Shown in pieces: positions 4,280 to 28,283 of a stretch of DNA of 64,000 bases; positions within the stretch are counted from its first letter, which is position 1; the number at the start of each line of letters is the position of its first letter. This DNA is from Candidatus Omnitrophota bacterium (GTDB lineage: Bacteria; Omnitrophota; Gorgyraeia; Gygaellales; Profunditerraquicolaceae). The position numbers and the translations under genes were made by a program. A model generated the notes under the pieces. It was not told where the DNA came from. It searched no databases and saw nothing but the letters and a program-made list of their open reading frames with translations. The stretch spans positions 25,083 through 89,082 of the forward strand of contig JAKLGJ010000003.1 in NCBI GenBank assembly GCA_022710715.1. Reading direction: 5' to 3'.

Positions 4280-4407
4280 GTTTCTTCCCCCTTTCTAAGA
4301 TATGATTACAGGTTGCTGCTTCTCTATAACCTTTTGTCTAATAGACAGATGACTTACAATGCCGTAGCTCGGTAGAGGTTATACAGCAGCATGAACACCT
4401 TGACTCT

Positions 4408-7111: not shown

Positions 7112-7120
7112 ACCCGTGAA

Positions 7121-7765
7121 TTATTTCGGGACTTTTTTCCAGTCTTCCAGGAACCGCTGCACCCCGATATCGGTTAAGGGATGCTTGATCAACTGCTCGA
7201 TCACCGCGAACGGGATAGTGGCGATATCCGCGCCGATCTTCGCGGCATCCGCCACGTGCACCGGATTGCGCACCGAGGCGACGATGATCTCGGTCTTGAA
7301 CCGGTAATTCGCGTAAATCTGCTTGATATCCCGGATCAGGTCCATCCCGGTCTGACTGATATCGTCAAGGCGGCCGATGAACGGGGAAATATAATCCGCG
7401 CCGGCCTTAGCCGCCAGCAAAGCCTGCGTGGCGGAAAAACACAAAGTAACGTTGGTTTTGATCTTTTTCGCCGCAAGCACGCGCACGGCCTTCAATCCCT
7501 CCCTGATCAGAGGGATCTTGATCACGATATTCGGGGCGATCTTCGCCAGTTCCGCGGCTTCTTTGCACATCCCGTCAGCCTCAAGACTGATCACTTCCGC
7601 GCTGACCGGCCCCTCCACCAGCGAGCAGATCTCTTTGAGCAACGCCTGCGCCGGACGGTTTTCTTTGGCGATCAGGGTAGGATTGGTGGTTACACCGTCT
7701 ATCACCCCCAGGAGCACCGCTTCCTTTATCTGCGCCACATTCGCCGTATCGATAAATATTTTCAT
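7121..7765 (-). CDS. tal: transaldolase / fructose-6-phosphate aldolase family (short Tal/Fsa type)
   Basis: [10 protein letters not shown]...GVTTNPTL...IKIP... matches the 215-aa Fsa/TalC family. Confidence 0.8.
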
Positions 7766-7767
7766 GG

Positions 7768-8685: not shown

Positions 8686-8814
8686 GCACTAATTGTATAG
8701 TAGAGTCGGTTTTTTTGCAAGCATTAAATCGCGACAAACAAAAAAATGCTTGTGCCTTTCGGGTAAACCATGTTATTATTTACCCGTTAATAGCACAACC
8801 ACCAAGGAGACCCC

Positions 8815-9354
8815 ATGCGCATACACGTGCCACTCTGTTTACTGTTGATTTTAGTGTCAGCGACTTCCGCTTGTGCCGCGGCGAAAAATGAGGAAACAGT
8901 CACCATTACCACGTACTATCCCTCCCCTTATGGAGTGTATAACGTCATCCGTCTGCATCCTGACACCAAAGCCGAAGGTTCGGAATGCAAAACCGGTGAA
9001 TTATACTACGAGAACATGGGGACCTCTACCCGTCCGACCGGATTGTATTTCTGCAACGACACCGAACGCTGGGAACGCTTAAACTATAAACCCCAGTTCG
9101 AGCTGGGCGGAATGTATCAAAACGGTGAATATCCATCCGCCACATCGACCAACTGTCCAAAAGGTCCGGCGCAAAATTCCTTCACTCCGTCTCGCAACCC
9201 TTGTTGCGAACACGTCAATCCATTGAACAACAACCAATGCGGCTGCCCGGAAGGATACATTGCGGTGTGCATGGACGACGCGATCGAACCACAGGACACT
9301 GACGGACGCGACCGGCGCGACGAGACCTGCTACTGCTACAAAAAGAACTTCTAA
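8815..9354 (+). CDS. secreted Cys-rich hypothetical protein
   Basis: Signal peptide MRIHVPLCLLLILVSATSACAA, about 10 Cys, GGAGA SD upstream. Confidence 0.55.
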   Translation: MRIHVPLCLLLILVSATSACAAAKNEETVTITTYYPSPYGVYNVIRLHPDTKAEGSECKTGELYYENMGTSTRPTGLYFCNDTERWERLNYKPQFELGGMYQNGEYPSATSTNCPKGPAQNSFTPSRNPCCEHVNPLNNNQCGCPEGYIAVCMDDAIEPQDTDGRDRRDETCYCYKKNF

Positions 9355-9484
9355 ACAGAAAGCGCTTCCAAACCGAACCGTCTCTAACTGACTGATAAAA
9401 TTAGAGTTACATCACGGCTTGTTAACAAAGTCAATATCTGGCTTCCAGGCCTTGAATTCCTTCTTTCCCCCTGTTACACTTAAT

Positions 9485-9622
9485 TGGAGTTAAAGTATTC
9501 TTATCGAAAAGGGCTCCGGGGGGATTACTGGGGGCCAAAGCCACGGATCGGTAAGCATTATTCTTTTATGCGTTTCGATAACCGGGTTGCCGAAATAAGA
9601 ATCAGCGGCGACGCGGTTTTTT
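9485..9622 (+). promoter_or_regulatory. conserved structured 5' leader with intrinsic terminator (possible divergent c-di-GMP-I/GEMM-like riboswitch)
   Basis: Contains CAAAGCCACGGAUCGGUAAG and UUUCGAUAACCGGGUUGCC...GGCGACGCGGUUUUUU. Both blocks are shared with the two minus-strand leaders at 31.7 and 34.2 kb. It ends 40 nt before the ATG at 9664. Confidence 0.45.
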
Positions 9623-9663
9623 CATTTCTTACACAACAGCTCATCTACCTGGGGGGGGGAACG

Positions 9664-12600
9664 ATGCTGACACGCTGCCTGAAATTTCTTTCTGCTTTCC
9701 TTATTATCTTCAATCTGGCAATTCCGGCAAGTTACGCTGATTTCGCGGTAGCGCCGTATAAACGCTATCCGCTGGCTTCAGGCCGCTCCGCTGCGCCGGC
9801 AACTCCAACTACTCAACAACCGGCCAACGCTGTGACACCTGCGGTAACTCCCGCTGCGACCCCGGCGCAATCAACGCCGGCAGCGCGGACAAGTACGCCT
9901 TTTGTGCGCTCAACCCCCTTGCAGACGAAACAGCCCGCGACTACGACCGCTCCGGCGGCTTCAAAATCGTCCACTTCACCGGCGCCGGTTGTAACTCCCG
10001 CGACGCCCCCGGCGCAGTCAACGCCGGCAGTGCGAAGAACCACTCCATTCGTGCGCTCCACTCCCTTGCAGACTAAACAACCCGCGACCACGGCCGCTCC
10101 GACTACTCAACAACCGTCCAGCACTCCTGCGCCTGCGGCAACTTCGGCACAGACAACTCCGGTAGCACGGACAAGCACGCCTTTTGTGCGCTCGACTCCC
10201 TTGCAGACGAAACAGCCCGCTACCACGGCCGCTCCGGCAGCCCAACAGCCAGCGGTGACTCCGGCGCAGACAGTTCCGGCGGTTACTCCCGCAGCAGCGC
10301 CAGCCACACCGGCTGTCGCGGCTAATCCGGTATCCCTGATCCCCGCTTATCAAAACCCGACTCCGGCATTCGGAACCAGACATACAACTGCTGCAACTAC
10401 AGCTACCAGCCTGGCGCAGATGAGCCCGGAGCAACAGGCCAGTCATATCAACTCTTTATCCGGATATGACGCCGCCCAGATGCTTGCCCGGCTCGACCAG
10501 AACCAGCTCAAACAGGTCATGGCCCAGCCCGGACTGAAGACCGACCTGCTTTCTAAAGTCAGCCCGTTCATTACCCCTGCTTCTTTTGCCGGGCTCACTC
10601 AATCCATGAACGCCGAGCAGATTTCCGCAGCCCTTTCCGCTGCGCCGCTGAACGCGGAAACTTACGCAAAAATACTGGAAAACTGCCCCCAGGCCGCGAC
10701 TGGAATGAAAACATTGATCAAGTCAGACCCGAATAAAGCTTTAAGCGCCATTACGGGGATGAGCGTAAACAAACAGGGCGAAGTATTCAGCCAGCTCGAC
10801 AGCAAAGATATCGCCGCACTGTTCAATGCCCGGACTTCCGACGGCTCGGACCCCAGGGACAACTCCGATCTTTTCGCCCGGCTTTCCCCGGACCAGCAAA
10901 ACAGCGTGTTGAAGGAATTGAGCGCGGTTAACCCGGCGCTGGCCCAGAAATACCTGTACGCGACCACCCAGTCCCTTACCAGAGGCACCAGCGAAGACGC
11001 AAAAGCCAAGCTTTCCGGCGACAGCGCATCTTCCGTTGACCATCCCGGATTGCTGGTAAACGATATGAACCCGGATCAACTTAAAGCGCTTCTGGGCGTG
11101 TGTCAGCCCGGAACTCTCGGCGCGATCCTGGCGGACAGCAAACTGAATACGGCGACCCGCAAACGCATCCTGGATATCATGAAAACCAGCTTCGAGAAAG
11201 CCGGGAATATCGAACAGACCGTGCTCTCTGCCAATGCCAACAAAGTTCCGCAGGACCCGCAACAGTACCTTTTCGATCTGGCCTGGACAACCTACTCCAC
11301 GCTCGATCCGGAAGGCGCTAAGGAAGATTTGAACTCGATCCAGTCCGCGGTAACCGGCTACAACCAGCGCCGCCAGGAATCGGTATTGAAACAGATCGCC
11401 GGAATGGATACCTCACGGGCAGGCGAGCTTCTGGCGCAAACCGACATTTCGGTAGCCCAGACCGCGCAGTTGATCATGTCCGCCTCCGGAGAGCAGAAAG
11501 CGAAGCTGCTGTCCGCGCTGGAACAATCCGATCCGGAGAAGGCAAAAGAAACCAAAACCATGATCAGCCGGATCGAGGAAAACAACCGCAAAGCCGCGCA
11601 GATAGAGAAAAACAACGAACAGGTGCGCAGCACCCTGAAGAAAGTCGGGCCGTCACCGGTAGCCGACTATTTCATCCGGAAAGGCAGTTCCGAACAGACT
11701 ATCGGGGAGCTGGCCCTGATGGACCAGAAATTCATCGACCAGACCCTGTCTTTGATCGAAAAGAAATCGCCCAAGACTGCCGCGCAGGTGCGCAAAGACC
11801 TGGCCGCATACCGGCAAAAAGCTTCTGCTTCGACCACCGTAGATCAACACCTGGACAATCTGGTGAAAGGCTCGGCGCAGGATGCGGCGCTTTTCATTGC
11901 CGCGCAGACTCCGGCAAACGCTAAGAATATTCTTTCGGAACTGGCCAAACGCAACGCATCGTTTGCGGAAGCAACCCTGGCGCAGCTCAAGAAGGTTGAC
12001 TACCAGCTTGCCGACGAAACCCAGAAAAAAGACACCCGCCGCCTGACCAAGAACGAACTGGGGCAACCCATCATTATCGACGGAGAGAACGTCTATCAAG
12101 TGGAAGAGCTTTCCGACGGCACCATCCTCACCCACAGGAGCACCGGAACGGTCAACAACACGAATCTCGGTAAGATCAACGATTCTCCGCAGAATACCGA
12201 GCTGGCCGCGGGCGTTAAGCCAGTCGATATCGACCTGCAGAAGCCCAGGATATACCTTACCGGACAAACCGCCACCGATAACAGCGTAACGATCACCCCG
12301 GGTTCCGGCAGCTCTACTCCCAAGGACGCCTGGTACGATCCGGTGAACAAGCGCTACGGCGACAGCACCAGCATCGGCAGCACGCCCAAGCCGGAATGGA
12401 ATATCAAACGGGAAATAACCTATGACGGGATCGGCAAGCTGACCTTCAAAGGTCAGCTTGACCCGCAAACAGGCGCGCCCCTCGACGGAACAGAGATGAC
12501 CGACGAGAAAGGGCACATCTTCACCGCGGTCACCAAAACCAGCCCGACTTCAGACAAACAGGTCGCCATCCCCGTGCAGACAACCTACCATGCCGGGGAC

Positions 12601-13023
12601 AATCTAACTCTGACTGACGGAACCGAATTGACTTTCAAGAGAGATACCCGGGTGAACCCGGGAATCGGAGAACTGCCGGCAGGCACGGAATTAACCGACA
12701 AAAAAGGCCGGCTGTTCGCTGTGGCGCCGGTCACCAATCCGGCCACAGGCAACCAGGTCTTCACCTACCAGCAGATAAGCTATAACGCCGGAGACACCGT
12801 TGAACTGAAAGACGGGACCACATTGACCTTCAAACAGGACACGATAGCCGACCCGAACACCCTGAAGTTCAAAACCAATGCAATACTCACGGATAAGGAC
12901 GGAAACTACTGGGAAGCCTTCGGAACTGTGACCAGCTTGCAATTCAAACAAATCAATCCAGCGACAGTTGAAAAAGACTGGAAGGTGTTCGACCCGGCAA
13001 CCGGACGTTTAGCCGGTAAATAA
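9664..13023 (+). CDS. giant secreted repeat protein (Pro/Thr/Ala-rich tandem repeats, helical middle, C-terminal beta repeats)
   Basis: The start is moved to ATG 9664 (MLTRCLKFLSAFLIIFNLAIPASYA signal peptide, G-rich SD). The track's longer N-terminus translates the upstream leader RNA. The protein has 3.5 tandem repeats of about 45 aa (STPFVRSTPLQTKQPATTAAP). At the C-terminus LTLTDGTELTFKRDT and VELKDGTTLTFKQDT are duplicated. Confidence 0.6.
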   Translation: MLTRCLKFLSAFLIIFNLAIPASYADFAVAPYKRYPLASGRSAAPATPTTQQPANAVTPAVTPAATPAQSTPAARTSTPFVRSTPLQTKQPATTTAPAASKSSTSPAPVVTPATPPAQSTPAVRRTTPFVRSTPLQTKQPATTAAPTTQQPSSTPAPAATSAQTTPVARTSTPFVRSTPLQTKQPATTAAPAAQQPAVTPAQTVPAVTPAAAPATPAVAANPVSLIPAYQNPTPAFGTRHTTAATTATSLAQMSPEQQASHINSLSGYDAAQMLARLDQNQLKQVMAQPGLKTDLLSKVSPFITPASFAGLTQSMNAEQISAALSAAPLNAETYAKILENCPQAATGMKTLIKSDPNKALSAITGMSVNKQGEVFSQLDSKDIAALFNARTSDGSDPRDNSDLFARLSPDQQNSVLKELSAVNPALAQKYLYATTQSLTRGTSEDAKAKLSGDSASSVDHPGLLVNDMNPDQLKALLGVCQPGTLGAILADSKLNTATRKRILDIMKTSFEKAGNIEQTVLSANANKVPQDPQQYLFDLAWTTYSTLDPEGAKEDLNSIQSAVTGYNQRRQESVLKQIAGMDTSRAGELLAQTDISVAQTAQLIMSASGEQKAKLLSALEQSDPEKAKETKTMISRIEENNRKAAQIEKNNEQVRSTLKKVGPSPVADYFIRKGSSEQTIGELALMDQKFIDQTLSLIEKKSPKTAAQVRKDLAAYRQKASASTTVDQHLDNLVKGSAQDAALFIAAQTPANAKNILSELAKRNASFAEATLAQLKKVDYQLADETQKKDTRRLTKNELGQPIIIDGENVYQVEELSDGTILTHRSTGTVNNTNLGKINDSPQNTELAAGVKPVDIDLQKPRIYLTGQTATDNSVTITPGSGSSTPKDAWYDPVNKRYGDSTSIGSTPKPEWNIKREITYDGIGKLTFKGQLDPQTGAPLDGTEMTDEKGHIFTAVTKTSPTSDKQVAIPVQTTYHAGDNLTLTDGTELTFKRDTRVNPGIGELPAGTELTDKKGRLFAVAPVTNPATGNQVFTYQQISYNAGDTVELKDGTTLTFKQDTIADPNTLKFKTNAILTDKDGNYWEAFGTVTSLQFKQINPATVEKDWKVFDPATGRLAGK
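9840..10270. repeat. imperfect tandem DNA repeats (about 135-147 bp period) inside the giant secreted protein gene
   Basis: cttgcagac(g/t)aaaca(g/a)cccgc recurs at 9918, 10065 and 10200. Confidence 0.7.
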
Positions 13024-14004
13024 TTCCACTTTATTGCGCCCGGATTTTTTGGCCTGATACAACGCTTTGTCCGCGTTATCCAGCAATCCCGCCAGCTCTT
13101 TACCCTGCTGCGGGAACAATGAGATCCCGACACTCACCGTGACGTCTATCCGCTCGTCATATGCCACTACCGGTTTGCTCTGTATGCCCGCGCGGATACG
13201 CTCCGCCACGAACAACGCCCCCTCTTTATTGGTTTCGGTCAAGAGAATGGCGAACTCCTCCCCCCCGTATTTACCGATAAGATCGACCTGACGGATGTGC
13301 GCTTTGATCCGCTGCGCGACTTCCTTGAGTATCGCGTCCCCTACCAGATGGCCGTAATGATCGTTGATATCCTTGAAATGGTCGACATCAAGCATCAAAC
13401 AGGCGCAGGCATAATTAAAAGCCCTGGAACGGGATAATTCCTCCGACGAACGCCCCCACCAGTACCTGCGCGCCGATACCTGGGTCAGTCCGTCGATAGT
13501 GGCCATCTCCTGCACTTTCTGATACAGAATGGCGCGTTTCATTCCCAGCAGGAATTGCTGGGAAAGAATGGTGAATTTATCCCGGTCTTCCCGGCGTACC
13601 GGCGCGACGACCAGATAATTCATCAGCTGGTCTTCCAGCCGCAGAGGCACTATCGCGTATTCCTTGAACGCCGCCAGATCGGCGTCCGCGGGAACGAACC
13701 GGCAGTCTTCGACAGCCAGCATTTTGTGCAGCTTCTCCTTAAAAACCGAAAACACCTTATCCTGATCGAGATGGCTGCACAATTCCCGGGTGATATCGTA
13801 TAAGGTCATGGTCTGCTCCAGCCGGTTGCGTAAATCCATGTTCTGCCCGGTAAGCTGATCGTATTCCTGCAGCAGCCGCTGATAATCAGCCTGACGCAGC
13901 TTCCCTTCGCGCTGCGCCGACAGCACGCGCCTGGCGAAAAACCGCTCCAGCCTGAAATAGAGAAGCATGGTGAGCAAAACAAGGATCGCAATCTGGATAA
14001 ACAT
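13009..14004 (-). CDS. membrane-anchored diguanylate cyclase (GGDEF domain)
   Basis: N-terminal TM helix. C-terminal motifs are RYGGEEFAILL (GGEEF active site) and DVDHFKDINDHYGH. Confidence 0.8.
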   Translation of the reverse strand: MFIQIAILVLLTMLLYFRLERFFARRVLSAQREGKLRQADYQRLLQEYDQLTGQNMDLRNRLEQTMTLYDITRELCSHLDQDKVFSVFKEKLHKMLAVEDCRFVPADADLAAFKEYAIVPLRLEDQLMNYLVVAPVRREDRDKFTILSQQFLLGMKRAILYQKVQEMATIDGLTQVSARRYWWGRSSEELSRSRAFNYACACLMLDVDHFKDINDHYGHLVGDAILKEVAQRIKAHIRQVDLIGKYGGEEFAILLTETNKEGALFVAERIRAGIQSKPVVAYDERIDVTVSVGISLFPQQGKELAGLLDNADKALYQAKKSGRNKVELFTG

Positions 14005-14005
14005 G

Positions 14006-15178
14006 CTAAGCTCCGATCACCAAATTCCTGCCCTTACTTTTGGCTTCATACAGGGCGCGGTCCGCTTTCATAAGCAACTCGATCTCTTCCTGCGCGTCAT
14101 GGGGAAATTCCGCTACACCCACGGAGATAGTGCACTGATTACGCTGCCTGCGCAATAAGAGCTCCCTGGCGGCAACCGCTTTGCGCAGGTTTTCCGCGAT
14201 CTTCAACCCGGTATTCTTATCGGTATCCGGCAGCAATACGCAAAACTCTTCTCCGCCGAACCGGCAGACTACGGCGGGTATCTGCGCGAGAGCCTCGCTC
14301 ACCGCTTTACTGATGGTTACCAGCACGATATCCCCCGCGGCGTGACCGAACGTATCGTTGAGTTTCTTGAAATTATCGATATCCAGCATCAGCAGGCAGA
14401 GCGAGCGCGGATGCCGGTACGTTCTTCGGCATTCGGTCTTAAGCATCTCCAGAAAATACCCTTTATTGAACAACCCGGTCAATCCGTCATGAATGGCCAT
14501 GGTCCGCGCGTCCTTGTACAGCTGCGCATTCTCCAGAGAAACCGCTCCCAGCTCCGCGATGGTCATGAAGAAACGCAGATCGTCCTGGGCGAAGAAACGC
14601 TTGTGCTGATGCTCAAGACGGATCAAACCAATGACCTTTCCCCCGCTGATCAGCGGCACTTCGATCAACGAAGCGATCGGGCGCGGGTCGGCGCGGCGCA
14701 CTTTATCAGCGTCGAAGCGGAAATCCTTGGAGATATCCTCGACCAGCAGCGGACTGGCGTGGCGCAGCACCCAGTGATCGAAACTGTCCCCCTCCTTGGC
14801 TTTGATCACGATCGCGCGTTCGTCTTTAAGTGTCTTGAAGAGGACTAACTTCTGGGTTGAACCGTCGAGCAGATATAACAGGCACTCTCCCTGATTATCG
14901 GCCAGCAGGAAGAACGAAATTGCGCAGAGCTGCTCGGCAACCGCATCCAGGGAAAGCTCCTGGTTCAGCAGTTCGATGATACGTTTAAGATTTTCGTAGC
15001 GTTCGATGCGCCGCTGCAGGAACTGGGTGTTCGCGCGCTCCTGCTGATTGGATGCCGACTGAACATTGATGTTCTCCTGAACGCCGTCACCGTCGAGTTT
15101 GAGCTTATAGAGTTGCCGGGAATTTCGCTGGGCGAGCCAGATGACCGCGGGGAGATTGCCCAGATAAAAAACCGCCAA
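14006..15178 (-). CDS. GAF-domain diguanylate cyclase (GGDEF)
   Basis: TM N-terminus, central GAF-like region, then RFGGEEFCVLL and DIDNFKKLNDTFGH. Confidence 0.8.
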   Translation of the reverse strand: MAVFYLGNLPAVIWLAQRNSRQLYKLKLDGDGVQENINVQSASNQQERANTQFLQRRIERYENLKRIIELLNQELSLDAVAEQLCAISFFLLADNQGECLLYLLDGSTQKLVLFKTLKDERAIVIKAKEGDSFDHWVLRHASPLLVEDISKDFRFDADKVRRADPRPIASLIEVPLISGGKVIGLIRLEHQHKRFFAQDDLRFFMTIAELGAVSLENAQLYKDARTMAIHDGLTGLFNKGYFLEMLKTECRRTYRHPRSLCLLMLDIDNFKKLNDTFGHAAGDIVLVTISKAVSEALAQIPAVVCRFGGEEFCVLLPDTDKNTGLKIAENLRKAVAARELLLRRQRNQCTISVGVAEFPHDAQEEIELLMKADRALYEAKSKGRNLVIGA

Positions 15179-18972: not shown

Positions 18973-19248
18973 TTACTCTGATTGTTTGCTGCAGCCACGG
19001 CACCCTTCCTTCTGTTTGGGGCAGGATTGGACAGCAGCATCCGCCTGGGCCTTCGTACTTTTAGCGGGCCTCTTGTAATCGGTAGCGTAGAACCCGGAGC
19101 CTTTGAAAATAATCCCCGCGCCGGCGCCGATCAACCGCTTGATCTTGCCCTTGCACTGCGGGCAGCTCTTGAGCGGCTTATCGGTCATGGATTGAAAGGC
19201 CTCGAAAACATGGCCGCATTTCGTGCATTCGTAATCGTAGGTTGGCAT
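18973..19248 (-). CDS. FmdB family zinc-ribbon protein
   Basis: MPTYDYECTKCGHVFE...CPQCKG: CxxC, then 17 residues, then CxxC. Confidence 0.7.
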   Translation of the reverse strand: MPTYDYECTKCGHVFEAFQSMTDKPLKSCPQCKGKIKRLIGAGAGIIFKGSGFYATDYKRPAKSTKAQADAAVQSCPKQKEGCRGCSKQSE

Positions 19249-19275: not shown

Positions 19276-20442
19276 TTATCTGAATGTTTTCTTGATCTTC
19301 TCGCCGAAACTTTCCCTGGATGCATCTTCTCCGGATAGACGCGCGAAATCTTCGATCAACTTACGCTGTTCGGCAGTCAGCCGGGTAGGAATATCCACTT
19401 CCACCTGAACCAACTCGTCGCCTACCCCGTGGCCGTGCACATCCGGAACGCCTTTTTCCTTGAGCCGGAAAATCTTGCCGCTCTGCGTTCCCGGCGGGAT
19501 CTTCATCGATACTTTCCCCTCCAGAGTGGGCACATCCACGTCAGCCCCCAGGATCGCTTTAGTCACGCTGATCGAAATACGGGTGATCAGGTCGTTGCCG
19601 CGACGCACAAAAACCGAATGCGGCTTAACCTCGATGATCACGTACAGGTCGCCCCGTCCGGCAGTCCCGGCTTCTCCTTCGCCGCGCACGCGCAGATTCG
19701 AACCGTTATCCACTCCCGGCGGCACCTTGACCCGGATAGTGCTGGTTTTACGCTGCCTGCCTTCGCCGCCGCAAGCAGGACACGGTGTCTGGATAAACTC
19801 GCCCTGCCCCCGGCATTTCGGACAGGTCTGCGCCAGCTGAAAGAATCCGCTGGATACGACTACCCGGCCGGACCCTTTACACTGGGTGCAGGTGATCTTT
19901 TTGGAACCGGGTTTAGCGCCGCTGCCGCCGCAGGTCTCGCACATCTCGTACCGCGGCACCGTGATCGATTTCTCCACTCCCCCGGCCGCCTCTTCCAGGG
20001 TGATCGAAACGGTTATCTCCAGATCGCGGCCGCGCCGCGCCCGCGGGTTTTGCCTGCCGCCCGACCGGCTGCTCCCGCCGCCGCCGAAAATATCGAACCC
20101 GAGATCCCCGAAAATATCCTCAAAGATACTCCCGCTGAAACCTCCGCCGCCGCCGAAAACGCTGGAGAAATCCGCGCCTTTGAAAATATCTTCATAGGCG
20201 TATTTCTGGTCGATACCGGAATGACCGTATTGATCGTAGAGCTGGCGCTTCTGGGTATCGGAAAGAACCGCGTACGCTTCCGAGATCTCCTTAAATTTCT
20301 CTTCCGCTTCTTTTTTCTGCGCCGGTTCAACCCGATCCGGATGGAATTTCATCGCCAGCTGACGATAAGCCTTTTTGATCTCATCGACGCTGGCGGACTT
20401 GGCGACGCCCAGCACTTCGTAGTAATCTTTCTTCGTAGACAT
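19276..20442 (-). CDS. dnaJ: molecular chaperone DnaJ
   Basis: J domain KDYYEVLGV...HPDR. G/F-rich linker. Four CxxCxGxG zinc repeats. Start set at MSTKK; the alternative upstream ATG at 20520 has an AAGGA SD. Confidence 0.85.
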   Translation of the reverse strand: MSTKKDYYEVLGVAKSASVDEIKKAYRQLAMKFHPDRVEPAQKKEAEEKFKEISEAYAVLSDTQKRQLYDQYGHSGIDQKYAYEDIFKGADFSSVFGGGGGFSGSIFEDIFGDLGFDIFGGGGSSRSGGRQNPRARRGRDLEITVSITLEEAAGGVEKSITVPRYEMCETCGGSGAKPGSKKITCTQCKGSGRVVVSSGFFQLAQTCPKCRGQGEFIQTPCPACGGEGRQRKTSTIRVKVPPGVDNGSNLRVRGEGEAGTAGRGDLYVIIEVKPHSVFVRRGNDLITRISISVTKAILGADVDVPTLEGKVSMKIPPGTQSGKIFRLKEKGVPDVHGHGVGDELVQVEVDIPTRLTAEQRKLIEDFARLSGEDASRESFGEKIKKTFR

Positions 20443-20574
20443 ATTCTTCACAAGATCAGCTAACAGGCTTTCCGGGGACAGGTTATTACTCGCCCGTTGT
20501 AGACGCGCGGGCGGCGTCATAATCCTTATGTCCCCTGCAAGCCTGTTAGCTGCTCTCCTTAACCTTTATTTGAT

Positions 20575-20639: not shown

Positions 20640-22556
20640 TCATTTCTCCTCTTTGAACTCGGCGTCGATGACGTCGTCGCCTTTACCTTTGCTTCCGGCG
20701 CCGGACTGCTGCTGCGGTCCGGATGACTGTTCCGCTTCGGCTGCGCCGCCCGGCTGCGGACCTGCGCCTGCGCCGCCACCGGCTGCGCCGGCCTGCTGTT
20801 TGGCAGCCGCCTGCTTGTAGATCTCTTCAGCCAGCTTATGCGACACTTTGGTCAGCTCTTCCATCTCTTTTTTGATGCGATCGGTATTCTTGTCCTTGAT
20901 CGCGCTCTTGAGATCGTTGAGCTTGGCCTCGATGCTCGCCCGTTCCTCCTGATTCACCTTATCGCCGTAATCCTTCAACGACTTCTCGGTGGCGTACGCG
21001 AGCGTATCGGCCTGATTGACCAATTCCACCTGTTCCTTGCGTTTGACGTCTTCGGAGGCGAATTTCTCCGCATCCTTGACCATCTTGTCGATCTCTTCCT
21101 TGGACAGTTTCTTGGGAGCGGTAATGCGGATGGATTGCTCTTTCCCCGTGCCCAGGTCCTTGGCGGAAACGTGCACAATACCGTTAGCGTCGATATCGAA
21201 GGTCACCTCCACCTGCGGAATGCCGCGGGGCGCCGGAGGAATACCTACCAGGTCGAAACGACCCAGTTCCACATTGTCATCCGCCATCTGGCGCTCGCCC
21301 TGCAGGACCCGGATAGTCACCGCGGTCTGGTTATCGGACGCGGTAGAGAACACCTGGCCCTTGCGGGTAGGAATAGTGGTGTTGCGTTCGATCAAACGGG
21401 TGCAGACGCCGCCCAGGGTTTCAATGCCCAGCGAAAGCGGGGTCACATCCAGAAGCAAAACATCCTTCATCTCGCCCTTGATGATCGCCGCCTGGATCGC
21501 CGCGCCCATAGCCACGCACTCCATGGGATCGATGCCGCGTTCGATCTTCTTGCCCACGTAATCCTCGACGAATTTCTGGACGATAGGCATGCGGGTCGGA
21601 CCGCCGACCAGAATGACCCGGTGCACGTCCGCGGGAGAGAGTTTGGCGTCCTTCAATGCCTCTTCCATGGGCTTGCGGCAGCGCTCGATGATCGGCCCTA
21701 CCAGCTCTTCCACTTTCGCCCGGTTCAAAGACATGGTCAGATGCTTCGGCCCGGTAGCATCGGCAGTGATAAAAGGCAGGTTGATATCCGTAGTTACGCT
21801 CGATGACAATTCGATCTTGGCCTTTTCCGCGCCTTCCTTAAGCCGCATCATCGCCATTTTATCCTTGCGCAGATCGATGCCGGTCTCTTTCTGGAACTGT
21901 CCGGCGATATAGTCGATCAACACATTGTCCATGTCCGTACCGCCCAGCTGCGTGTCGCCGTGGGTGGATTTGACTTCGAAAACGCCTGAAGCCATTTCCA
22001 TGATGGTCACGTCCAGGGTTCCGCCGCCGAGATCGAACACCATGATCTTCTGTTCCTTCTCCGATTTTTCCAACCCGTAGGCAAGACAGGCTGCCGTAGG
22101 TTCGTTGACGATCCTTAGGACCTTCAACCCGGCGATCTCCCCGGCGTCCTTGGTCGCCTGACGCTGGTTATCGTCGAAATACGCCGGACAGGTGATCACC
22201 GCTTCTTCCACCTTGTCGCCCAGGTAGGCTTCGGCATCCTGCTTTATCTTCTGCAGGATAAATGCCGAAATCTGCTGCGGCGTATAATCCTTGCCCATCA
22301 CCTTGAAGTGATAATCCTGCCCCATCTTGCGTTTGGCGGCATAGATCGTGCCTTCAGGATTGATCGCTGCCTGCCTGCGCGCCGGCTCCCCTACCAGCCT
22401 CTGACCATCCTTGGTGAACGCCACATAGGACGGGAATGCCTTTCCCGACGCCACGCCCGCGCCTTCCGCGGAAGGAATGATCACCGGCCTGCCTGCTTCC
22501 ATCACCGATGCCGCTGAATTCGAAGTCCCTAAATCGATTCCGATTACTTTAGCCAT
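20640..22556 (-). CDS. dnaK: molecular chaperone DnaK (Hsp70)
   Basis: GIDLGTSNS...DLGGGTLD...GGTDMD and the full-length Hsp70 architecture. Confidence 0.95.
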
Positions 22557-23160
22557 GGTTAACCTCCTCGTTACCAGCCCCCTCTTGTTTGGGCTGCGTT
22601 TTTTTACGGGACACCTGGACCTTTGCCGTCCGAAGCACCCGGTTACCGATCATATATCCTTTTTGCATCTCCTCCACCACTGTATTTTCAGGCAGGTCAT
22701 CCCGTTCAACCTGCATTAACGCCTCGTGCACATGCGGATCGAAACACTTGCCCTTCGACTCCATGCAACAGACTTTATTCCTGCGCAGCATGTCGTGCAG
22801 CCGCGACAGGATCATTTCCACGCCTTTTAAAAAAGCCGTGAAATCCTCGTGCTTTTGCTGCGACAACTCTATACTGCGTTCCAGATCGTCTATGCTGTTG
22901 AGCATCTCGCAGAGTAATTCCTCATTGGCATAGCGGGTATATTCTTCACGGTCCCGTTCCCAGCGCTTGCGCGCATTCTCGAATTCCGCCTGCAAACGCA
23001 CCAGCTTATCCCAGTTCTCCGCGGCTTTTTGAGACTGCTCTTTCAACTGGTCGTACTCGGCCTGCGTCAGGGTAACCGTTTTCTGCGCTTCGGCGCCGCT
23101 TTTTTTCGCTGCTTCCTGCTCGTCTTTCTGATTTTTCTTATGTTCGTTCATATGCCACAT
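22549..23160 (-). CDS. grpE: nucleotide exchange factor GrpE
   Basis: [19 protein letters not shown] and the C-terminal GrpE fold motifs. Confidence 0.85.
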
Positions 23161-23165: not shown

Positions 23166-23906
23166 TTAAAATTCGTCGAGTAACGTATTGAGCGTATTGG
23201 AAATGAACGCAAGCGTGGAAACCGTCTGTTCATAGCTCATCCTGCGCGGCCCCAGCACTGCGATCTTTCCCTTCCCCTTCTTCCCCTTGTGATACGAAGA
23301 AACCACCAGCGAACATTCCTCGCTGATATTCGGACAGGATATCTCTCCGCCTATAAACACGGTCAGCGGCTTATCCTGGTCCTGATTCAACAGATGCAGC
23401 AACTGGCTTTTCTCCTCCAGCAAATGCACCAGAGCCTGCAATTTGGCGTTATCGTGAAACTCCGGTTCCTTGATGATATTGCTCAAGCCGGTGTACAGGA
23501 TGCGATCGCGCCATTCCGAAAAAGAAATGATCGCGGTATAATGGGTCAAACGGGCGATCATCTCCGAGGTCTTCTCCAGGACGTCTTCAAAAGAACTCAA
23601 CCGCTTTTTATACTCCGAAATAATGCTTTCCTTCTGTTCTTCGGACAGGCTGAATTCGCCCATCAGGAAATCCACGTAATAGCGGTACCCTTTGTCGGTA
23701 GGCACCCTGCCCGCGGAAGTGTGCGGCTGATAGAGGTAGCCGTGCTCCTCCAGCTCGGAAAGGATGTTGCGTATAGTGGCCGAACTCAACCCGAAAAAGT
23801 TCATCAAATCGTGCGAACTCACGGGGTTACCGGTCTGAATATACGCGCTCACCGTAGCCGCAAGCACCTGGTTGTTCCTTATGGAATGATCTACTGTCCT
23901 CACCAT
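23166..23906 (-). CDS. hrcA: heat-inducible transcription repressor HrcA (short form)
   Basis: LAATVSAYIQTGNPVSSHDLMNFFGLSSATIRNILSELEEHGYLYQPHTSAGRVPTDKGYRYYVD is the HrcA N-terminal wHTH. Confidence 0.8.
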   Translation of the reverse strand: MVRTVDHSIRNNQVLAATVSAYIQTGNPVSSHDLMNFFGLSSATIRNILSELEEHGYLYQPHTSAGRVPTDKGYRYYVDFLMGEFSLSEEQKESIISEYKKRLSSFEDVLEKTSEMIARLTHYTAIISFSEWRDRILYTGLSNIIKEPEFHDNAKLQALVHLLEEKSQLLHLLNQDQDKPLTVFIGGEISCPNISEECSLVVSSYHKGKKGKGKIAVLGPRRMSYEQTVSTLAFISNTLNTLLDEF

Positions 23907-23929
23907 AACCCTATAATTTTAGCACACAA

Positions 23930-26504
23930 TTACCTGCTGTCAATGGCGATCTCCCCGTTCTTGACCTCAACCGCAACAGCGTCACCGGCTTTGATCTTTC
24001 CTTTAAGCACATCGAGAGCCAGAGCATCAACGATCTTCTTCTGGATCAACCGTTTAAGCGGCCTGGCGCCATAGGCAGGGTCAAACCCTTCCCTGGCCAG
24101 AAACGCCACGGTCTTATCGCTAACCTTCAAAACCACATTGTTGTTTTCCTTGAACCTCCTGGCGATCAACCCCAGCTGGATAGCCACGATTTTTTCCATA
24201 TCCTTCTGGTCCAGATAATTGAATACTACGGTCTCATCGACCCGGTTCAAGAATTCCGGCCGGAAATGAGACTTGAATTCCTGATCGATCTTACGTTCCA
24301 TCACCTCCCTGGGTTCCTCCCGGTTCAAAAGCTGCGTCCCGAGATTGGATGTCATCACTATCACCGTATTCTTGAAATTCACCACCCGGCCCTGCCCGTC
24401 AGTCAATCGGCCGTCGTCGAATATCTGAAGCAGCACATTAAAAACATCCGGATGCGCCTTTTCGATCTCATCGAACAGGATCACTGCGTACGGCCGCCTG
24501 CGCACCGCCTCGGTCAATTGCCCGCCTTCCTCGTAGCCCACGTACCCCGGAGGAGCGCCGATCAATCGTGAAACCGAGTGTTTTTCCATATACTCGGACA
24601 TATCGATGCGTAGCAGCGCCTGTTCATCGTCGAAGAGGAACCAGGCGAGCGATCTGGCCATTTCGGTCTTGCCGACGCCGGTCGGTCCGACAAAAATGAA
24701 GACCCCGGCCGGACGATTCGGATCAGCCAGCCCGCTGCGCGACCTGCGAATGCACGCGGATACCAGCTCTACGGCGTTATCCTGGCCGATCACCCGCTCT
24801 TTAAGCCGGTCTTCCATCTTCAGCAGTTTTTCGGTTTCACCCTCCATCAATTTAGTCAAGGGGATACCGGTCCATTTGGAAACAACCACGGCAATATCGT
24901 CCTCATCCACTTCCTCTTTAAGCAGAGAGCCGTTACGCTGCAGCTGCGCCAGTTTTTCGCCGGAAGCTTTTAACCGCTCTTCCAGTTCCCGGAGCAGTCC
25001 ATACCGTATCTCGGCAACCCTAGCCAGGTTGGCGCCTTTCTCGGCGCTCTTCTCTTCTTTCCTGGCTTCCTCGATCTGTTCCTTGACCCGGCGTACTTCC
25101 AGGATCAGATCTTTCTCTTTGCGCCACTTTTCGGTCAGGTCTTTGCTCTGCTTGCGCAACACATCCAGATCTTCTTCCAGAGCTTTCAAGCGTTCCAGAG
25201 AAGCCTTGTCCTTTTCCTTCTTAAGCGCCTGACGCTCGATCTCCAGCTGCATGATCCTGCGATCGATTTCGTCGAGCTCCTGCGGCTTGGAATCAATCTC
25301 CATGCGCAAACGGCTGGCCGATTCATCGACCAGATCAATAGCTTTGTCCGGCAGGAAACGATCGGCAATATAGCGGGCGGAAAGCCGGGCTGCGGCGATC
25401 AACGCCCCGTCCTTGATCCTTACGCCGTGATATAATTCATAGCGTTCTTTCAACCCGCGCAAAATGCCTATAGTATCTTCCACCGACGGCTGGTCGACGT
25501 ACACCTGCTGGAAACGGCGCTCCAGCGCCGCGTCCTTCTCTATATACTTGCGGTATTCGTCCAGGGTAGTCGCGCCGATACAACGCAGCATGCCCCGGGC
25601 TAGCGCCGGTTTGAGCATGTTCGCGGCGTCCACCGCGCCTTCGGCGGCTCCGGCGCCGACCAGAGTGTGCAGTTCATCGATAAACAGGATGATCTGGCCG
25701 TCTTTTGCCTCGACTTCCTTAAGCACGGCTTTCAGACGATCCTCAAATTCTCCCCTGAATTTCGCGCCGGCCACCAGAGCGCCCATGTCCAGAGCGATAA
25801 TGCGTTTATTCTTCAACCCTTCCGGCACGTCTTTCTGGGCAATACGTTGCGCCAGGCCTTCCACTATCGCCGTCTTGCCGACGCCTGCCTCGCCGATCAA
25901 CACCGGATTATTCTTGGTCCGCCGCAGTATCACCTGGATCACCCTGCGGATCTCATCATCGCGCCCGATCACCGGGTCCAGCTTACCCCGGTTCGCCATT
26001 TCCGTCAGATCGCGGCCGAATTTTTCCAGCGGCTTGTATTTTTCCTCCGGATTGGCGTCGGTAACGTGCTGCGCTCCGCGAATTTTGGCCAGCGCGGTCA
26101 GCACTGCATCCTTTCCTATATTCTGTTGCTTAAAAACCTGCGCAACTGCGCCGCCGCCGTCAAGCTCGGCGAGAAGCACATGCTCGCCGGAAATGAACTC
26201 ATCCTTGAGCTGCCGCGCCTCATGCTCGGCGTCTTTGAATAATTTATTCGTTGCCGGGGATACATACACCTGGTGCGCGCCGCTGACCCGGGTGAATCCG
26301 TTAAGAGCTTCTTCGACTGCCTTAATCAGGCTGAACGAAGATATGCCCAGCTCATCCAGCAGCATCACCAGAACACTCTCGTCCTGGCGCAGCAAAGCGT
26401 AAAACAAATGCTCCGGCTCTACCTGCTGATGCTTCTTTTCTTCAGCCAGGGCGATCGCCTGCTCCACGGCTTCCCGTAATCGTTGAGTCAATTTTTCTAT
26501 CTTC
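23930..26504 (-). CDS. clpB: ATP-dependent chaperone ClpB
   Basis: Two AAA+ modules ([16 protein letters not shown]) and a coiled-coil middle domain. The start is proposed at GTG (rc 26502-26504), 7 nt after a GGAGGG SD. The track's ATG at 26536 lies inside the CIRCE palindrome. Confidence 0.85.
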
Positions 26505-26525
26505 ACCTGGCGTCCCTCCGCAATC

Positions 26526-26552
26526 TTAGCAGTCATATCAAAAGACTGCTAA
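26526..26552 (-). promoter_or_regulatory. CIRCE-like HrcA operator variant (TTAGCAGTC-N9-GACTGCTAA)
   Basis: Perfect 9-N9-9 inverted repeat. It differs from the canonical TTAGCACTC-N9-GAGTGCTAA by a compensated C/G swap at half-site positions 7 and 8. It sits in the clpB 5' UTR, upstream of hrcA in the same strand series. Confidence 0.6.
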
Positions 26553-26569
26553 CAACAAACCAAAAAAAT

Positions 26570-26839
26570 TTAACCCTCGGACTTACTCTCCATCTCTATG
26601 ATCAACTTCACTCCGCTAACATTGACATGCCGGACTTCCATCAGATAATGCACATACTCCAGTTGCCGGACATCGCGATGCGAATACAACCTGATCTTTG
26701 TACCCATCCTTTTCGGTCTGACCACTCCGGCTTTATCCAGCTGGCGTAAGGTCCAAACAGGAAGACCGACCAGCTTGCTTACTACACTGATCACATACAC
26801 AGGTTCATCCGGACTTATACGCACTTCATAGATTCCCAT
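26570..26839 (-). CDS. hspR: MerR-family heat-shock repressor HspR-like
   Basis: YVISVVSKLVGLPVWTLRQLDKAGVVRPKR and VSGVKLIIEME align with HspR ([28 protein letters not shown] and LAGVKRILELE). Confidence 0.65.
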   Translation of the reverse strand: MGIYEVRISPDEPVYVISVVSKLVGLPVWTLRQLDKAGVVRPKRMGTKIRLYSHRDVRQLEYVHYLMEVRHVNVSGVKLIIEMESKSEG

Positions 26840-26867: not shown

Positions 26868-26896
26868 AGATTATCATGATCTAACTAAATTGTCAA
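26868..26896 (-). promoter_or_regulatory. candidate promoter of hspR with overlapping imperfect palindrome
   Basis: The minus strand reads TTGACA, a 15-17 nt spacer, then GATAAT/TAATCT. AGATTATCATGATCT overlaps the -10 element. A second AGATTATCTAACT copy lies at 26917-26929. Confidence 0.35.
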
Positions 26897-26933
26897 GCAT
26901 TATTTGATAATTTTTATTAGATTATCTAACTGA

Positions 26934-28196
26934 CTAAACGGACTTTATTTCTAAGTCCTTTTCGGAGAGAACTTTATTAAAAAGATGTTTGGGGAGATTT
27001 AATCGAATCTGAACGCCTTTTTGCAGATACTCGACCTCGATCACTTTACCTTGAGTATAAAACCAGTGCACCAGATCCATCCGACCATGAGGCACGACTA
27101 TTTCCAGAGACACCATTTTGGCGGAGAAATGCTTCTGGATCTCCTCCAGCAGCCTGTCGATATGCGCCCCGTTGAGCGCGCTGATGGGAATCGCCTGCTT
27201 GAAATCCTCCTGCAGCCGCAGCAACCAGGCCTGGTCAGCCAGCAGATCTATCTTATTCAGCGCGGTTATCATCGGCTTATCCGCGTAGCCCAACTCCACC
27301 AGCACATTCATCACCGCGGCATAATGCTCATACACCTTAGGATGGTTGACGTCGAGCACATGAATAAGCAGATCGGATTGAGCCACTTCTTCCAGCGTTG
27401 CCTTAAACGCTTCGATCAAACCATGCGGCAGATTATGCAGAAAACCGACCGTGTCCGAGATGACTATCTGGTCGCCGTTAGGCAGCTTGAAACTTTTAGA
27501 AAGCGGATCCAGCGTGGTAAATAAACTCCTGCTTACTTCCTGCCCGGCGTCCGTCAATTTATTCAGCAGCGTCGACTTGCCGGCGCTGGTATAACCTACC
27601 AGAGAAACCGTGGACACCGCGTTTTCCTTGCGCCGCTTGCGCATCAACTCGCGATGCTGCCGCACGCCCCGGAGATCTTCCTTCAACCGTTCGATGCGCT
27701 GCCGGATCCTGCGCCGATCGATCTCCAGCTTCTGCTCGCCGGGACCGCGGGTCCCGATGCCGCCGCCCTGACGGGACAGGATGAGCCCCTTACCCACCAG
27801 CCTGGGCAGTAAATATTGCAGTTGCGCCAGCTCTACCTGCATTTTGCCTTCCGGACTCTTAGCGTGCTGCGCAAAAATATCCAGGATAAGCTGGGTGCGG
27901 TCGATAGTCTTGCAGCCGATCGCTTCTTCCAGATTACGCTGCTGCGTGCCGGAAAGGTCGTGGCTGAAAATCACCGTATCCGCGACCGTCTGGTCGACAA
28001 GCATGCGGATCTCTTCGGCCTTCCCCTTTCCTATAAGCAGGCCGGGCGTGGGACGATCCACCATACATTCCATAGCGCCGGCAATCTCCACGCCGGTAGA
28101 CCGGGCCAGCTCGTCCAGCTCGACAGACAGATCTTCCAGAGACCAGCTGCTCTTCTCCGCTTTCAGCTTCATCGTAACCAGCAATGCTCTTTCCAT
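26934..28196 (-). CDS. hflX: GTPase HflX
   Basis: HflX N-domain, then G-domain motifs GYTSAGKSTLLN, DTVGF, NKID. Start set at the MERALLV Met. Confidence 0.8.
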   Translation of the reverse strand: MERALLVTMKLKAEKSSWSLEDLSVELDELARSTGVEIAGAMECMVDRPTPGLLIGKGKAEEIRMLVDQTVADTVIFSHDLSGTQQRNLEEAIGCKTIDRTQLILDIFAQHAKSPEGKMQVELAQLQYLLPRLVGKGLILSRQGGGIGTRGPGEQKLEIDRRRIRQRIERLKEDLRGVRQHRELMRKRRKENAVSTVSLVGYTSAGKSTLLNKLTDAGQEVSRSLFTTLDPLSKSFKLPNGDQIVISDTVGFLHNLPHGLIEAFKATLEEVAQSDLLIHVLDVNHPKVYEHYAAVMNVLVELGYADKPMITALNKIDLLADQAWLLRLQEDFKQAIPISALNGAHIDRLLEEIQKHFSAKMVSLEIVVPHGRMDLVHWFYTQGKVIEVEYLQKGVQIRLNLPKHLFNKVLSEKDLEIKSV

Positions 28197-28283
28197 GAAG
28201 ATATTATAGCACAAAAAAGTCCCGGGGGGCAGCGAACTGCTCTCCGGGACTTTGAGCAAATGTTTGCGTCGTTAACCGGGCTG

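Follow-up and report, generated by a model that had tools for sequence, protein, structure and literature searches.

Within a 64,000-nucleotide stretch of the genome of a Candidatus Omnitrophota bacterium (the window), a chaperone gene cluster encodes both an HspR-like repressor and a short HrcA, and carries a CIRCE operator with a symmetric C/G swap in its two arms. Does this swap mark an operator specificity that co-evolved with the short HrcA, as the initial annotation proposed, or is the operator an ordinary one, and how might two repressors encoded in one cluster share its control?

Gene order and transcription units

Open reading frames and family scans place hflX, an hspR-like gene, the CIRCE-like repeat, clpB, hrcA, grpE, dnaK and dnaJ in this order on the minus strand. 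The GTPase gene hflX (26934..28259; TIGR03156, 439.1 bits, cutoff 216.75), found upstream of hspR/hrcA in nearly all of 80 related loci, precedes the gene for an 89-aa MerR-family protein (hspR-like, 26570..26839). The genes clpB (23930..26506; TIGR03346, 1315.6 bits, cutoff 1232.1, residues 6-855 of 858), hrcA (23166..23906), grpE (22549..23160; PF01025, 157.8 bits; NF010738, 146.1 bits, cutoff 137), dnaK (20640..22556; NF001413, 909.1 bits, cutoff 648) and dnaJ (19276..20520; NF008035, 450.6 bits, cutoff 338) follow. The NF008035 alignment begins at residue 29 of dnaJ, whose true start is likely Met27, at 20442. An FmdB-type zinc-ribbon gene (18973..19248, minus strand; PF09723, 66.2 bits), which follows dnaJ in 30/30 related loci, forms the conserved tail of the cluster. 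Neither groES nor groEL was found within the 64-kb window. The start of clpB is almost certainly the GTG at 26506, not the listed ATG at 26536 inside the repeat: a Shine-Dalgarno (SD) sequence, GGAGGG, lies before this GTG at 26519..26514, the N-termini of ClpB in relatives (M-K-I/L-E/D-K-L/M-T-Q) align with it, and the ClpB model alignment begins there as well.

The co-directional string that joins the two repressor genes to clpB and the dnaK system therefore stands as first described, since ORF positions and family scans agree with it, while its designation as a single super-operon was overstated. Rather than one promoter and none internal, the cluster contains a strong, conserved promoter 9 nt ahead of the ATG of hrcA, and thus comprises at least two transcription units. 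This promoter (23916..23943, minus strand; TTGACA, 16 nt, TGc and TAAAAT) overlaps the clpB stop codon, matches the consensus at 11 of 12 positions in addition to the TG, and has neither an SD nor a CIRCE. Its layout and 9-nt distance are identical in L121, L122, L123 and L125, and the hrcA transcript of this sublineage is probably leaderless. In other lineages, a CIRCE lies directly before or after the hrcA promoter. A hidden CIRCE in the hrcA promoter of the window (GTGCTAA in the -10 region) was considered and rejected, as a left arm is missing at the distance needed.

The CIRCE variant and the short HrcA

The repeat (26526..26552) lies between the hspR stop codon (26570) and clpB, 19 nt before the revised clpB start, and reads TTAGCAGTC-N9-GACTGCTAA, a 9-bp inverted repeat with an N9 spacer (plus strand, TTAGCAGTCATATCAAAAGACTGCTAA; spacer on the coding, minus strand, TTTTGATAT). 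We recovered it as the sole CIRCE-like element, with one match in 64 kb against 0.01 expected by chance, and as the only site in the window within three mismatches of canonical CIRCE. Its perfect dyad symmetry was likewise confirmed: 16 of 18 consensus bases are kept, and the two departures, G at position 7 and C at position 21, leave the symmetry intact. This symmetric G7/C21 variant is common to the window and its close relatives L087 and L121. Among the 80 related loci surveyed, essentially all that carry hspR have a CIRCE after it, at the same position.

HrcA is indeed short (246 aa), as are its best 120 homologues (202-257 aa). Its whole-protein score passes the TIGR00331 cutoff (217.9 versus 197.2 bits, the model being matched in two pieces), and in place of the three-domain architecture of ~340 aa it has a winged helix-turn-helix (HTH) and a GAF-like domain, without the inserted domain (~80 aa in the Thermotoga maritima protein). 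It aligns to residues 18-145 and 225-329 of the structure 1STZ, leaving residues ~146-224, which we take to be the inserted dimerizing domain, without a counterpart; dimerization must therefore use another surface. Matched to 1STZ, the predicted structure (pLDDT 83) reaches TM scores of 0.77-0.79 when normalized by query length and 0.61-0.62 when normalized by target length. Both the recognition helix (SSATIRN) and the wing (GRVPTDKGYRYYVD) are conserved.

We then asked how far the variant is tied to such short proteins. We found the identical G/C form in at least 120 species from many phyla, where ~9 chance matches are expected (596 Gb / 4^18), and 111 of 121 variant sites lie directly upstream of groES/EL, hrcA, clpB, dnaK, htpG, hsp20, rpoH-like or Zn-ribbon genes. 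Of the complete HrcAs adjoining variant sites, 15 of 23 are full length (326-405 aa). Variant and canonical sites also stand side by side within single loci (L074, L017 and L010); because other genomes use both forms simultaneously, a canonical CIRCE at groESL would not be decisive for the status of the present site. A literature search for the TTAGCAGTC string returned primers only, and searches yielded no paper linking Omnitrophota with HrcA and nothing useful on Xanthomonas rpoH and CIRCE.

A position matrix was built from 84 CIRCE sites of Omnitrophota relatives with short HrcAs. Most of these sites are canonical, and arm positions 7/21, along with 9/19, vary most: position 7 is C in 51 sites, T in 25, G in 6 and A in 2, and position 21 is G in 70, C in 7, T in 5 and A in 2. 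At 7/21, 44 pairs are symmetric, and independence of the two positions predicts 43.7. Hybrid sites are found, with G/G in L143, L162 and L185 and C/C in L122, L147 and L173, and the HrcA recognition helix and wing are unchanged across site types.

The proposal that the symmetric C-to-G / G-to-C change represents an altered operator specificity, co-evolved with the truncated 246-aa HrcA, draws on the perfect symmetry of the change in the window, L087 and L121, and on the joint occurrence of G7 and C21 in 3/84 sites against ~0.5 expected under independence, though these three are phylogenetically linked. Against this, the variant is widespread and mostly adjoins full-length HrcAs, most relatives with a short HrcA have canonical sites, hybrids are frequent, as is a mixture of sites in one locus, and recognition helices and wings are virtually identical between L121 (G/C) and L122 (C/C). 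Spread, independence of positions 7 and 21, hybrids, mixed loci and an unchanged winged HTH together largely refute the proposal, which we now regard as very improbable. Even harder to credit is a decaying, non-functional CIRCE copy. The two departures from consensus would fit such decay, as would the loss here of the hrcA-proximal CIRCE of other lineages; however, 16 of 18 consensus positions and perfect symmetry are kept, the position after hspR and a 9-nt spacing to an upstream T-run are conserved across the clade, and chaperone genes of many phyla are preceded by the identical sequence. These comparisons suggest that the repeat is an ordinary functional HrcA operator, and that the swap is drift at a little-constrained arm position, fixed in a small sublineage with HrcA specificity unchanged.

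A proposed model of serial repression

The hspR promoter (26868..26896, minus strand) has a -35 element TTGACA (26896..26891), a 17-nt spacer and a TGa-preceded -10 element TAATCT (26873..26868), and the motif CTTGACAAAATAATTA...TATGTTATAnT is kept at this position in ~40 related loci. From this we infer a transcript start at ~26861. Centred at ~-62 from that start lies a 13-bp palindrome, TTAGATAATCTAA (26917..26929), which is unique in the window and is not a HAIR box. The pattern TTAG[AGT]N3[TCA]CTAA occurs at the palindrome position in 38/42 loci with hspR, versus 0/16 loci lacking it, and these 38 account for 38/46 of all such sites in 680 kb. The remaining 4 loci with hspR keep the right half-site, and in L190 the palindrome immediately follows the -10 element. 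Loci lacking hspR show one-mismatch remnants, consistent with decay where hspR was lost. Additional copies in related loci were set aside, as every one falls within a coding region and resembles a chance match.

The palindrome is therefore a candidate operator of the HspR-like protein, which has a MerR_1 domain (PF13411, 46.2 bits) and whose gene is the first of the cluster in at least 42 loci. The co-occurrence could merely reflect one inherited cassette, which counts against the link to HspR. The best NCBIfam match of the protein is to HspR (NF047375, E 1.9e-20), scoring 72.6 bits where the cutoff is 105. As initially annotated, no HAIR box is present: the best matches in the 64-kb window have 3 mismatches, their number (four, versus 1.55 expected) is within chance, and none lies in a promoter region. 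Both the score below cutoff and the absent HAIR box count against the serial model set out below.

No conserved promoter was found within 300 nt upstream of CIRCE, and none lies between hspR and CIRCE; instead of overlapping or directly following a promoter, the operator lies ~310 nt downstream of the nearest one, that of hspR. A T7 run (26562..26568, minus strand) ends exactly 9 nt before CIRCE. Runs of at least 5 T ending 9 nt upstream accompany 43/46 hspR-proximal CIRCE sites, versus 4/41 other Omnitrophota CIRCE sites and 2/236 flanks in other phyla, so that this rigid spacing is confined to CIRCE sites reached by transcription from hspR. The sequence of the 9-nt spacer is not conserved. 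The T-run does not follow a G+C-rich stem, which led us to reject an intrinsic terminator after hspR. In the window, L087, L121 and L122, the SD begins 6-10 nt after CIRCE, and a transcript starting inside or after CIRCE would therefore lose it.

Taken together, we consider it likely that two chaperone-titrated repressors act in series on this cluster, with an ordinary CIRCE whose swap is drift; every regulatory step is read from sequence conservation. Transcription of hspR would be driven by a promoter of sigma-70 type, extended at the -10 and evident from its conservation, and the HspR-like protein may repress this promoter via TTAGAWWATCTAA near -62, as the strict co-occurrence with hspR suggests. 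The resulting transcript would cross the intercistronic CIRCE ~310 nt downstream and would be the only visible source of clpB mRNA carrying its SD. HrcA bound to CIRCE would block the elongating polymerase, and the T-run ending 9 nt upstream may favour release of the stalled complex. Release of HrcA and HspR by chaperone titration is established; here, unfolded proteins would titrate GroEL and DnaK, both repressors would leave, and clpB would be made. The genes hrcA-grpE-dnaK-dnaJ would also be transcribed from their own strong promoter, itself apparent from conservation, which, lacking CIRCE, may keep a basal DnaK supply outside HrcA control in this sublineage. That HrcA would not control its own proximal promoter here is unusual, and counts against the model.

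More tentatively, and as the less probable case, HrcA on the intercistronic CIRCE and the U-tract 9 nt upstream could constitute a protein-dependent terminator. Polymerase from the HspR-controlled promoter would stall at HrcA with a weak rU:dA hybrid and then be released, and clpB would be on only when the DnaK- and GroEL-sensing repressors are both off, a serial AND gate. We know of no precedent for HrcA as an elongation roadblock, nor of a fixed U-tract just before the operator as a described feature of bacterial roadblocks, and to our knowledge an AND gate made of an operator and a release element has been described neither for HrcA nor for bacterial roadblocks. Read-through and a roadblock in the serial model draw support from L132, in which one strong promoter and one CIRCE serve hsp20-groESL-clpB-hrcA-grpE-dnaK-dnaJ; in some relatives, the terminator reading would extend to this whole gene set. 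A roadblock is strong or weak according to the speed at which the arrested polymerase is cleared (PMC4132739).

An alternative role for the T-run is that of an UP element, at ~-52 to -45 if TTAGCA is a -35 element. CIRCE would then overlap an internal promoter (TTAGCA, extended -10 TGCTAAnnn), and HrcA would be a classical initiation repressor of clpB, independent of the hspR promoter. The window does contain TTAGCA, 17 nt and a TG-preceded TAAGAT (TAATAT in L121 and L122), with the T-run placed as stated, and a strict 9-nt spacing would suit a promoter element. We nevertheless judge this unlikely: only ~8/18 sites inspected end the -10 in T, which is no enrichment; a start ~7 nt past the -10 would come to lie inside the SD or after it in the window, L087, L121, L122 and L144; the T-run is kept despite a strong promoter directly after CIRCE in L141, L163 and L188; and it is absent at CIRCE sites without a preceding hspR. 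A further alternative is an RNA-level role, reported for CIRCE in other bacteria, in which the repeat would act mainly as a hairpin in the hspR-clpB transcript, either as a stability or processing element or as a FourU-like thermometer for clpB translation, its U-run pairing with the SD. A 9-bp hairpin does appear in the centroid fold, and in the minimum-energy structures of several relatives the purine-rich SD region base-pairs with the U-run across the hairpin, but the fold is not better than that of shuffled sequence (z -0.44), and an Rfam scan of 18.5-28.5 kb matched no family. Complementary arm pairs at 7/21 (44/84) and 9/19 (49/84), without covariation at 7/21, and arms that are each conserved in sequence give the pattern expected for protein recognition. 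Moreover, the CIRCE-SD distance ranges from ~6 to >40 nt while the T-run-CIRCE distance is fixed, and the T-run persists without a following SD. A hairpin as the main function thus appears improbable, and we retain serial repression as the preferred reading.

Significance and relation to known systems

The G/C form of CIRCE is common in nature, and the flagged finding is ordinary. Variation at positions 7 and 21 says little about a change of specificity, a point worth heeding when regulons are called from motifs. More can be learned from the architecture around the operator: in this uncultured phylum, hspR, a palindrome unlike HAIR, a T-run, CIRCE and the chaperone genes stay together as one rigid cassette. 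Its HrcA, without the inserted domain, is a natural minimal HrcA for structure-function work, and the locus also points to an operator candidate for HspR-like proteins of a divergent family. If roadblock plus release is true, it would represent a new use of a classical operator and a natural gate with two inputs, in which folding is sensed through DnaK and through GroEL.

The locus resembles the Bacillus subtilis-type HrcA-CIRCE system (consensus TTAGCACTC-N9-GAGTGCTAA) in its HrcA orthologue above cutoff, its 9-N9-9 repeat with 16/18 consensus bases, the expected genes hrcA-grpE-dnaK-dnaJ and clpB, and the conserved recognition helix and wing. It differs in that the operator is intercistronic, ~310 nt from the nearest upstream promoter and not at a core promoter or start site, in the T-run at a fixed 9 nt before it, in a hrcA-proximal promoter without CIRCE, and in an HrcA without the inserted domain. 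In actinobacteria, HspR acts through HAIR (CTTGAGT-N7-ACTCAAG) on dnaK-grpE-dnaJ-hspR and clpB. Common to both is a MerR-type repressor encoded within a chaperone operon, its autoregulation and its action on clpB and dnaK being predicted here, whereas the present locus has no HAIR but the candidate operator TGTTAGA-N3-TCTAACA, a protein of 89 aa below the HspR cutoff, and hspR first, not last. The HrcA of the window has the fold of T. maritima HrcA (PDB 1STZ) in its winged HTH and GAF-like parts (TM 0.77-0.79, normalized by query length), but lacks a counterpart of residues ~146-224.

The LacI, CodY and CcpA roadblocks (PMC4132739) also involve a repressor site within a transcription unit, far from the promoter, whereas for HrcA such a role is a prediction made here. 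In Helicobacter pylori and Campylobacter jejuni, HspR sites lie upstream of core promoters and HrcA sits over the core promoter (PMC6032397, PMC7464140). As is predicted here, two repressors act there on the same chaperone genes, with HrcA downstream of the HspR site. The H. pylori HspR sites have their centres at -72 and -117 (PMC6032397, PMC7464140), and our candidate has its centre at ~-62. HrcA forms that fall short of the ~340-aa type are also present there (the NCBIfam model NF003033 has 264 positions), but the window HrcA matches this epsilonproteobacterial short-form model at its N-terminus only (53.9 bits, cutoff 248), and the candidate operator of the window is not HAIR-like. In those species both operators flank one promoter and hspR belongs to a separate cbpA-hspR operon, whereas in the Omnitrophota locus hspR heads the cluster and the whole hspR gene separates the two operators.

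Organisation of the heat-shock cluster

All genes of the cluster lie on the minus strand of the window: hflX (28259..26934), an hspR-like MerR-family gene of 89 aa (26839..26570), clpB, hrcA (246 aa, 23906..23166), grpE (23160..22549), dnaK (22556..20640) and dnaJ (listed as 20520..19276). The initial annotation had placed the heat-shock genes in one string, and all of them were found there, with ClpB, HrcA, GrpE, DnaK and DnaJ, as well as HflX, above their curated cutoffs. The 89-aa protein has a MerR_1 domain, and its best NCBIfam match is HspR; as the score of 72.6 bits is below the cutoff of 105, it is named HspR-like. Neither groES nor groEL was found within the 64-kb window.

The listed ATG of clpB (26536), between the hspR-like gene and hrcA, falls within the CIRCE repeat, the HrcA operator. 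However, the ClpB N-termini of relatives (MKIEKLTQ or MKLDKMTQ) align with a GTG at 26506, which has a Shine-Dalgarno sequence (GGAGGG) 7 nt upstream; both point to this GTG as the start, and the repeat is therefore intergenic. The listed dnaJ ORF likewise has an extra 26 N-terminal aa (20442-20520, minus strand), the J domain and family models beginning at Met27, from which the dnaK-dnaJ gap is ~197 nt rather than 119 nt.

At the upstream end, hflX (26934-28259, minus strand) is always directly upstream of the cluster and co-directional, in the window and in most of the Omnitrophota relatives' loci (L121-L200), and 5 nt separate its stop from the palindrome described below; this constant place and proximity suggest that hflX is part of the same stress module. 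Downstream, dnaJ is followed by an FmdB-type zinc-ribbon gene (18973-19248, minus strand), as in 30/30 Omnitrophota loci, and beyond it by a VanZ-like gene on the same strand. In Actinomycetota and Chloroflexota (L088, L091, L101, L104, L120), FmdB-like zinc-ribbon genes also have the CIRCE variant of the window immediately before them, and the zinc-ribbon protein may be an unrecognised HrcA regulon member.

The CIRCE variant and the short HrcA

The repeat TTAGCAGTC-N9-GACTGCTAA at 26526-26552 is the only match in 64 kb, where 0.01 would be expected, and no other site there comes within three mismatches of canonical CIRCE, in agreement with the single G/C-variant element reported initially. 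That annotation had further proposed that the swap (G7/C21 for the canonical C7/G21) arose by co-evolution with the short HrcA. We reject this proposal, as the variant is widespread and found beside full-length HrcAs, and positions 7 and 21 vary independently; we regard the repeat as a normal CIRCE.

Searching one genome per species for the exact variant returned at least 120 stretches, against a chance expectation of ~9 (596 Gb / 4^18), from Clostridia, Chloroflexota, Acidobacteriota, Actinomycetota, Patescibacteria, Xanthomonadales, Cloacimonadota and others. Among the matches listed, 83 of 121 sites lie within 400 nt upstream of groES (47), hrcA (27), clpB (5), groEL (3) or dnaK (1), and 28 of the other 38 are upstream of genes for RpoH-like sigma factors (12), htpG (7), FmdB-type zinc ribbons (5), hsp20 (3) or clpB (1). 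Complete HrcAs adjoining variant sites measure 326-405 aa in 15/23 cases. Variant and canonical sites stand in tandem before groES in two of these stretches (L074, L017), and a third (L010) has a variant site plus a hybrid one.

A separate observation concerns Xanthomonadales and related Gammaproteobacteria (L002, L012, L020, L023, L030, L031, L032, L046, L055, L057, L068, L092), in which the variant lies over the start of, or at most 35 nt upstream of, a gene for a ~290-aa sigma factor resembling RpoH. This position suggests that HrcA controls the heat-shock sigma factor in these groups.

When metagenomes were scanned with 31 aligned short HrcAs as the query, 80 loci (44-65% identity) were retrieved, and their gene order is conserved: hflX, [hspR], CIRCE, [hsp20/groESL/clpB], hrcA, grpE, dnaK, dnaJ. 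Their 84 distinct CIRCE sites have near-invariant arms except at positions 7 and 21, and 9 and 19. Position 7 is C in 51 sites, T in 25, G in 6 and A in 2, and position 21 is G in 70, C in 7, T in 5 and A in 2; independence of the two would give 43.7 complementary sites, and 44 are observed. G7 occurs with C21 in three sites (window, L087, L121) and with G21 in three (L143, L162, L185), and L122, a close relative, resembles an intermediate with its C7/C21. The HrcA recognition helix and wing are unchanged across C/G, G/C and hybrid site types. Independence, hybrid sites and an unchanged recognition surface argue that the symmetric swap is drift at the level of the lineage, in a position under weak constraint. 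In two relatives that lack clpB (L123 and L125, ~9900-9990), CIRCE is kept and is followed by an orphan Shine-Dalgarno sequence and ATG-TAA, which looks like a clpB deletion scar.

The 120 best homologues of the window HrcA are all 202-257 aa long and come from Candidatus Omnitrophota wherever the source is named, which marks the short form as normal for this lineage rather than truncated. Its residues 10-135 align with 18-145 of T. maritima HrcA (1STZ), and residues 130-240 with 225-329. An AlphaFold model (pLDDT 83, pTM 0.79) matches 1STZ with a TM-score of 0.77-0.79 by query length and 0.61-0.62 by target length. This two-piece alignment and model match indicate that the protein consists of a winged HTH and a GAF-like domain and lacks the ~80-residue insert, which we take to be the "inserted dimerizing domain" of the T. 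maritima protein. Short HrcAs (224-245 aa) also occur beside variant CIRCE in Patescibacteria, an unclassified bacterium (L096) and an uncultured gammaproteobacterium (L103), the loci with short non-Omnitrophota forms being L024, L028, L049, L096, L103 and L111; the inserted domain may have been lost more than once.

Promoters and candidate operators of hspR and hrcA

Upstream of hspR, a promoter (-35 at 26896-26891, -10 at 26873-26868, minus strand) is preceded by a palindrome, TGTTAGATAATCTAATA (26917-26929), a candidate operator of the HspR-like protein whose centre lies near -62 as judged from the promoter positions in the window. No HAIR box, the known HspR operator, was found in the window, as first reported. 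Common to ~40 loci upstream of hspR is CTTGACAAAATAATTA...TATGTTATAnT, a -35 and extended -10, with the palindrome (G)TTAGAWWATCTAA(Y) ~18 nt upstream of it. The motif TTAG[AGT]N3[TCA]CTAA occupies this place in 38/42 hspR+ loci versus 0/16 hspR-less loci, and these 38 are among only 46 sites in 680 kb; other copies in related loci are intragenic. The four exceptional hspR+ loci retain the right half-site, the palindrome of L190 is directly downstream of the -10, and several hspR-less loci carry one-mismatch remnants behind hflX. The comparison of loci gives good evidence for a non-HAIR operator linked to HspR, with cassette inheritance as a caveat.

A second, strong promoter (TTGACA, 16 nt, TGcTAAAAT; 23943..23916, minus strand) overlaps the clpB stop. 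The hrcA ATG follows its end at a distance of 9 nt, and this region (23904-23943, minus strand) contains no Shine-Dalgarno sequence. Nearly all related loci have a promoter of this family before hrcA, and in most lineages a CIRCE (TTAGCATTC-N9-GAGTGCTAA) lies directly after it or 5 nt before. In the sublineage of the window (with L121, L122, L123 and L125) it lacks CIRCE and its 9-nt distance is fixed, and because of these features hrcA-grpE-dnaK-dnaJ is probably also expressed as a leaderless, sublineage-specific transcript outside HrcA control. The "super-operon" of the initial annotation thus holds as a one-strand cluster, but should be read as one with at least two promoters, the second before hrcA.

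The hspR-clpB interval and proposed read-through

Downstream of the hspR stop, a T-run (26562-26568) ends 9 nt before CIRCE. This exact spacing recurs at 43/46 hspR-proximal sites, compared with 4/41 of the clade's remaining CIRCE sites and 2/236 flanks in other phyla, and the spacer sequence is not conserved. An intrinsic terminator was ruled out, since no G+C-rich stem precedes the T-run, which may serve to release roadblocked polymerase, act as an UP element or function as an anti-SD. No conserved promoter was found between hspR and CIRCE in related loci. In L132, hflX-hspR-CIRCE-hsp20-groES-groEL-clpB-hrcA-grpE-dnaK-dnaJ lie on one strand (2705-14400); the only CIRCE there is canonical, and hsp20 through dnaJ have one strong promoter, that of hspR.

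We favour a model in which transcription would read through from the hspR promoter toward clpB, HrcA at CIRCE would gate it, and the U-tract would help to free polymerase stalled there; the strength of roadblocks is known to depend on the rate at which stalled polymerase is terminated (PMC4132739). Alternatively, CIRCE itself could embed a promoter (TTAGCA, 17 nt, TGCTAAnnn) with the T-run as its UP element. However, the presumed final -10 base is T in only ~8/18 sites, and because the Shine-Dalgarno sequence begins just 6-10 nt past CIRCE in the window, L087, L121, L122 and L144, the resulting transcript would lack it. The repeat might instead act as an RNA hairpin, but its fold is no better than that of shuffled sequence, and the arms are conserved in sequence rather than in pairing.

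The novelty lies in how this lineage connects familiar components. Its HrcA lacks the inserted domain, the HspR-like gene is linked to a palindrome that is not a HAIR box, the intercistronic CIRCE has a T-run at a fixed distance, and hrcA has a promoter that lacks CIRCE and probably gives a leaderless transcript. Our literature search found no paper linking Omnitrophota with HrcA. In H. pylori and C. jejuni, HrcA binds at the core promoter and HspR sites lie upstream of it, like the palindrome of the window (PMC6032397, PMC7464140).
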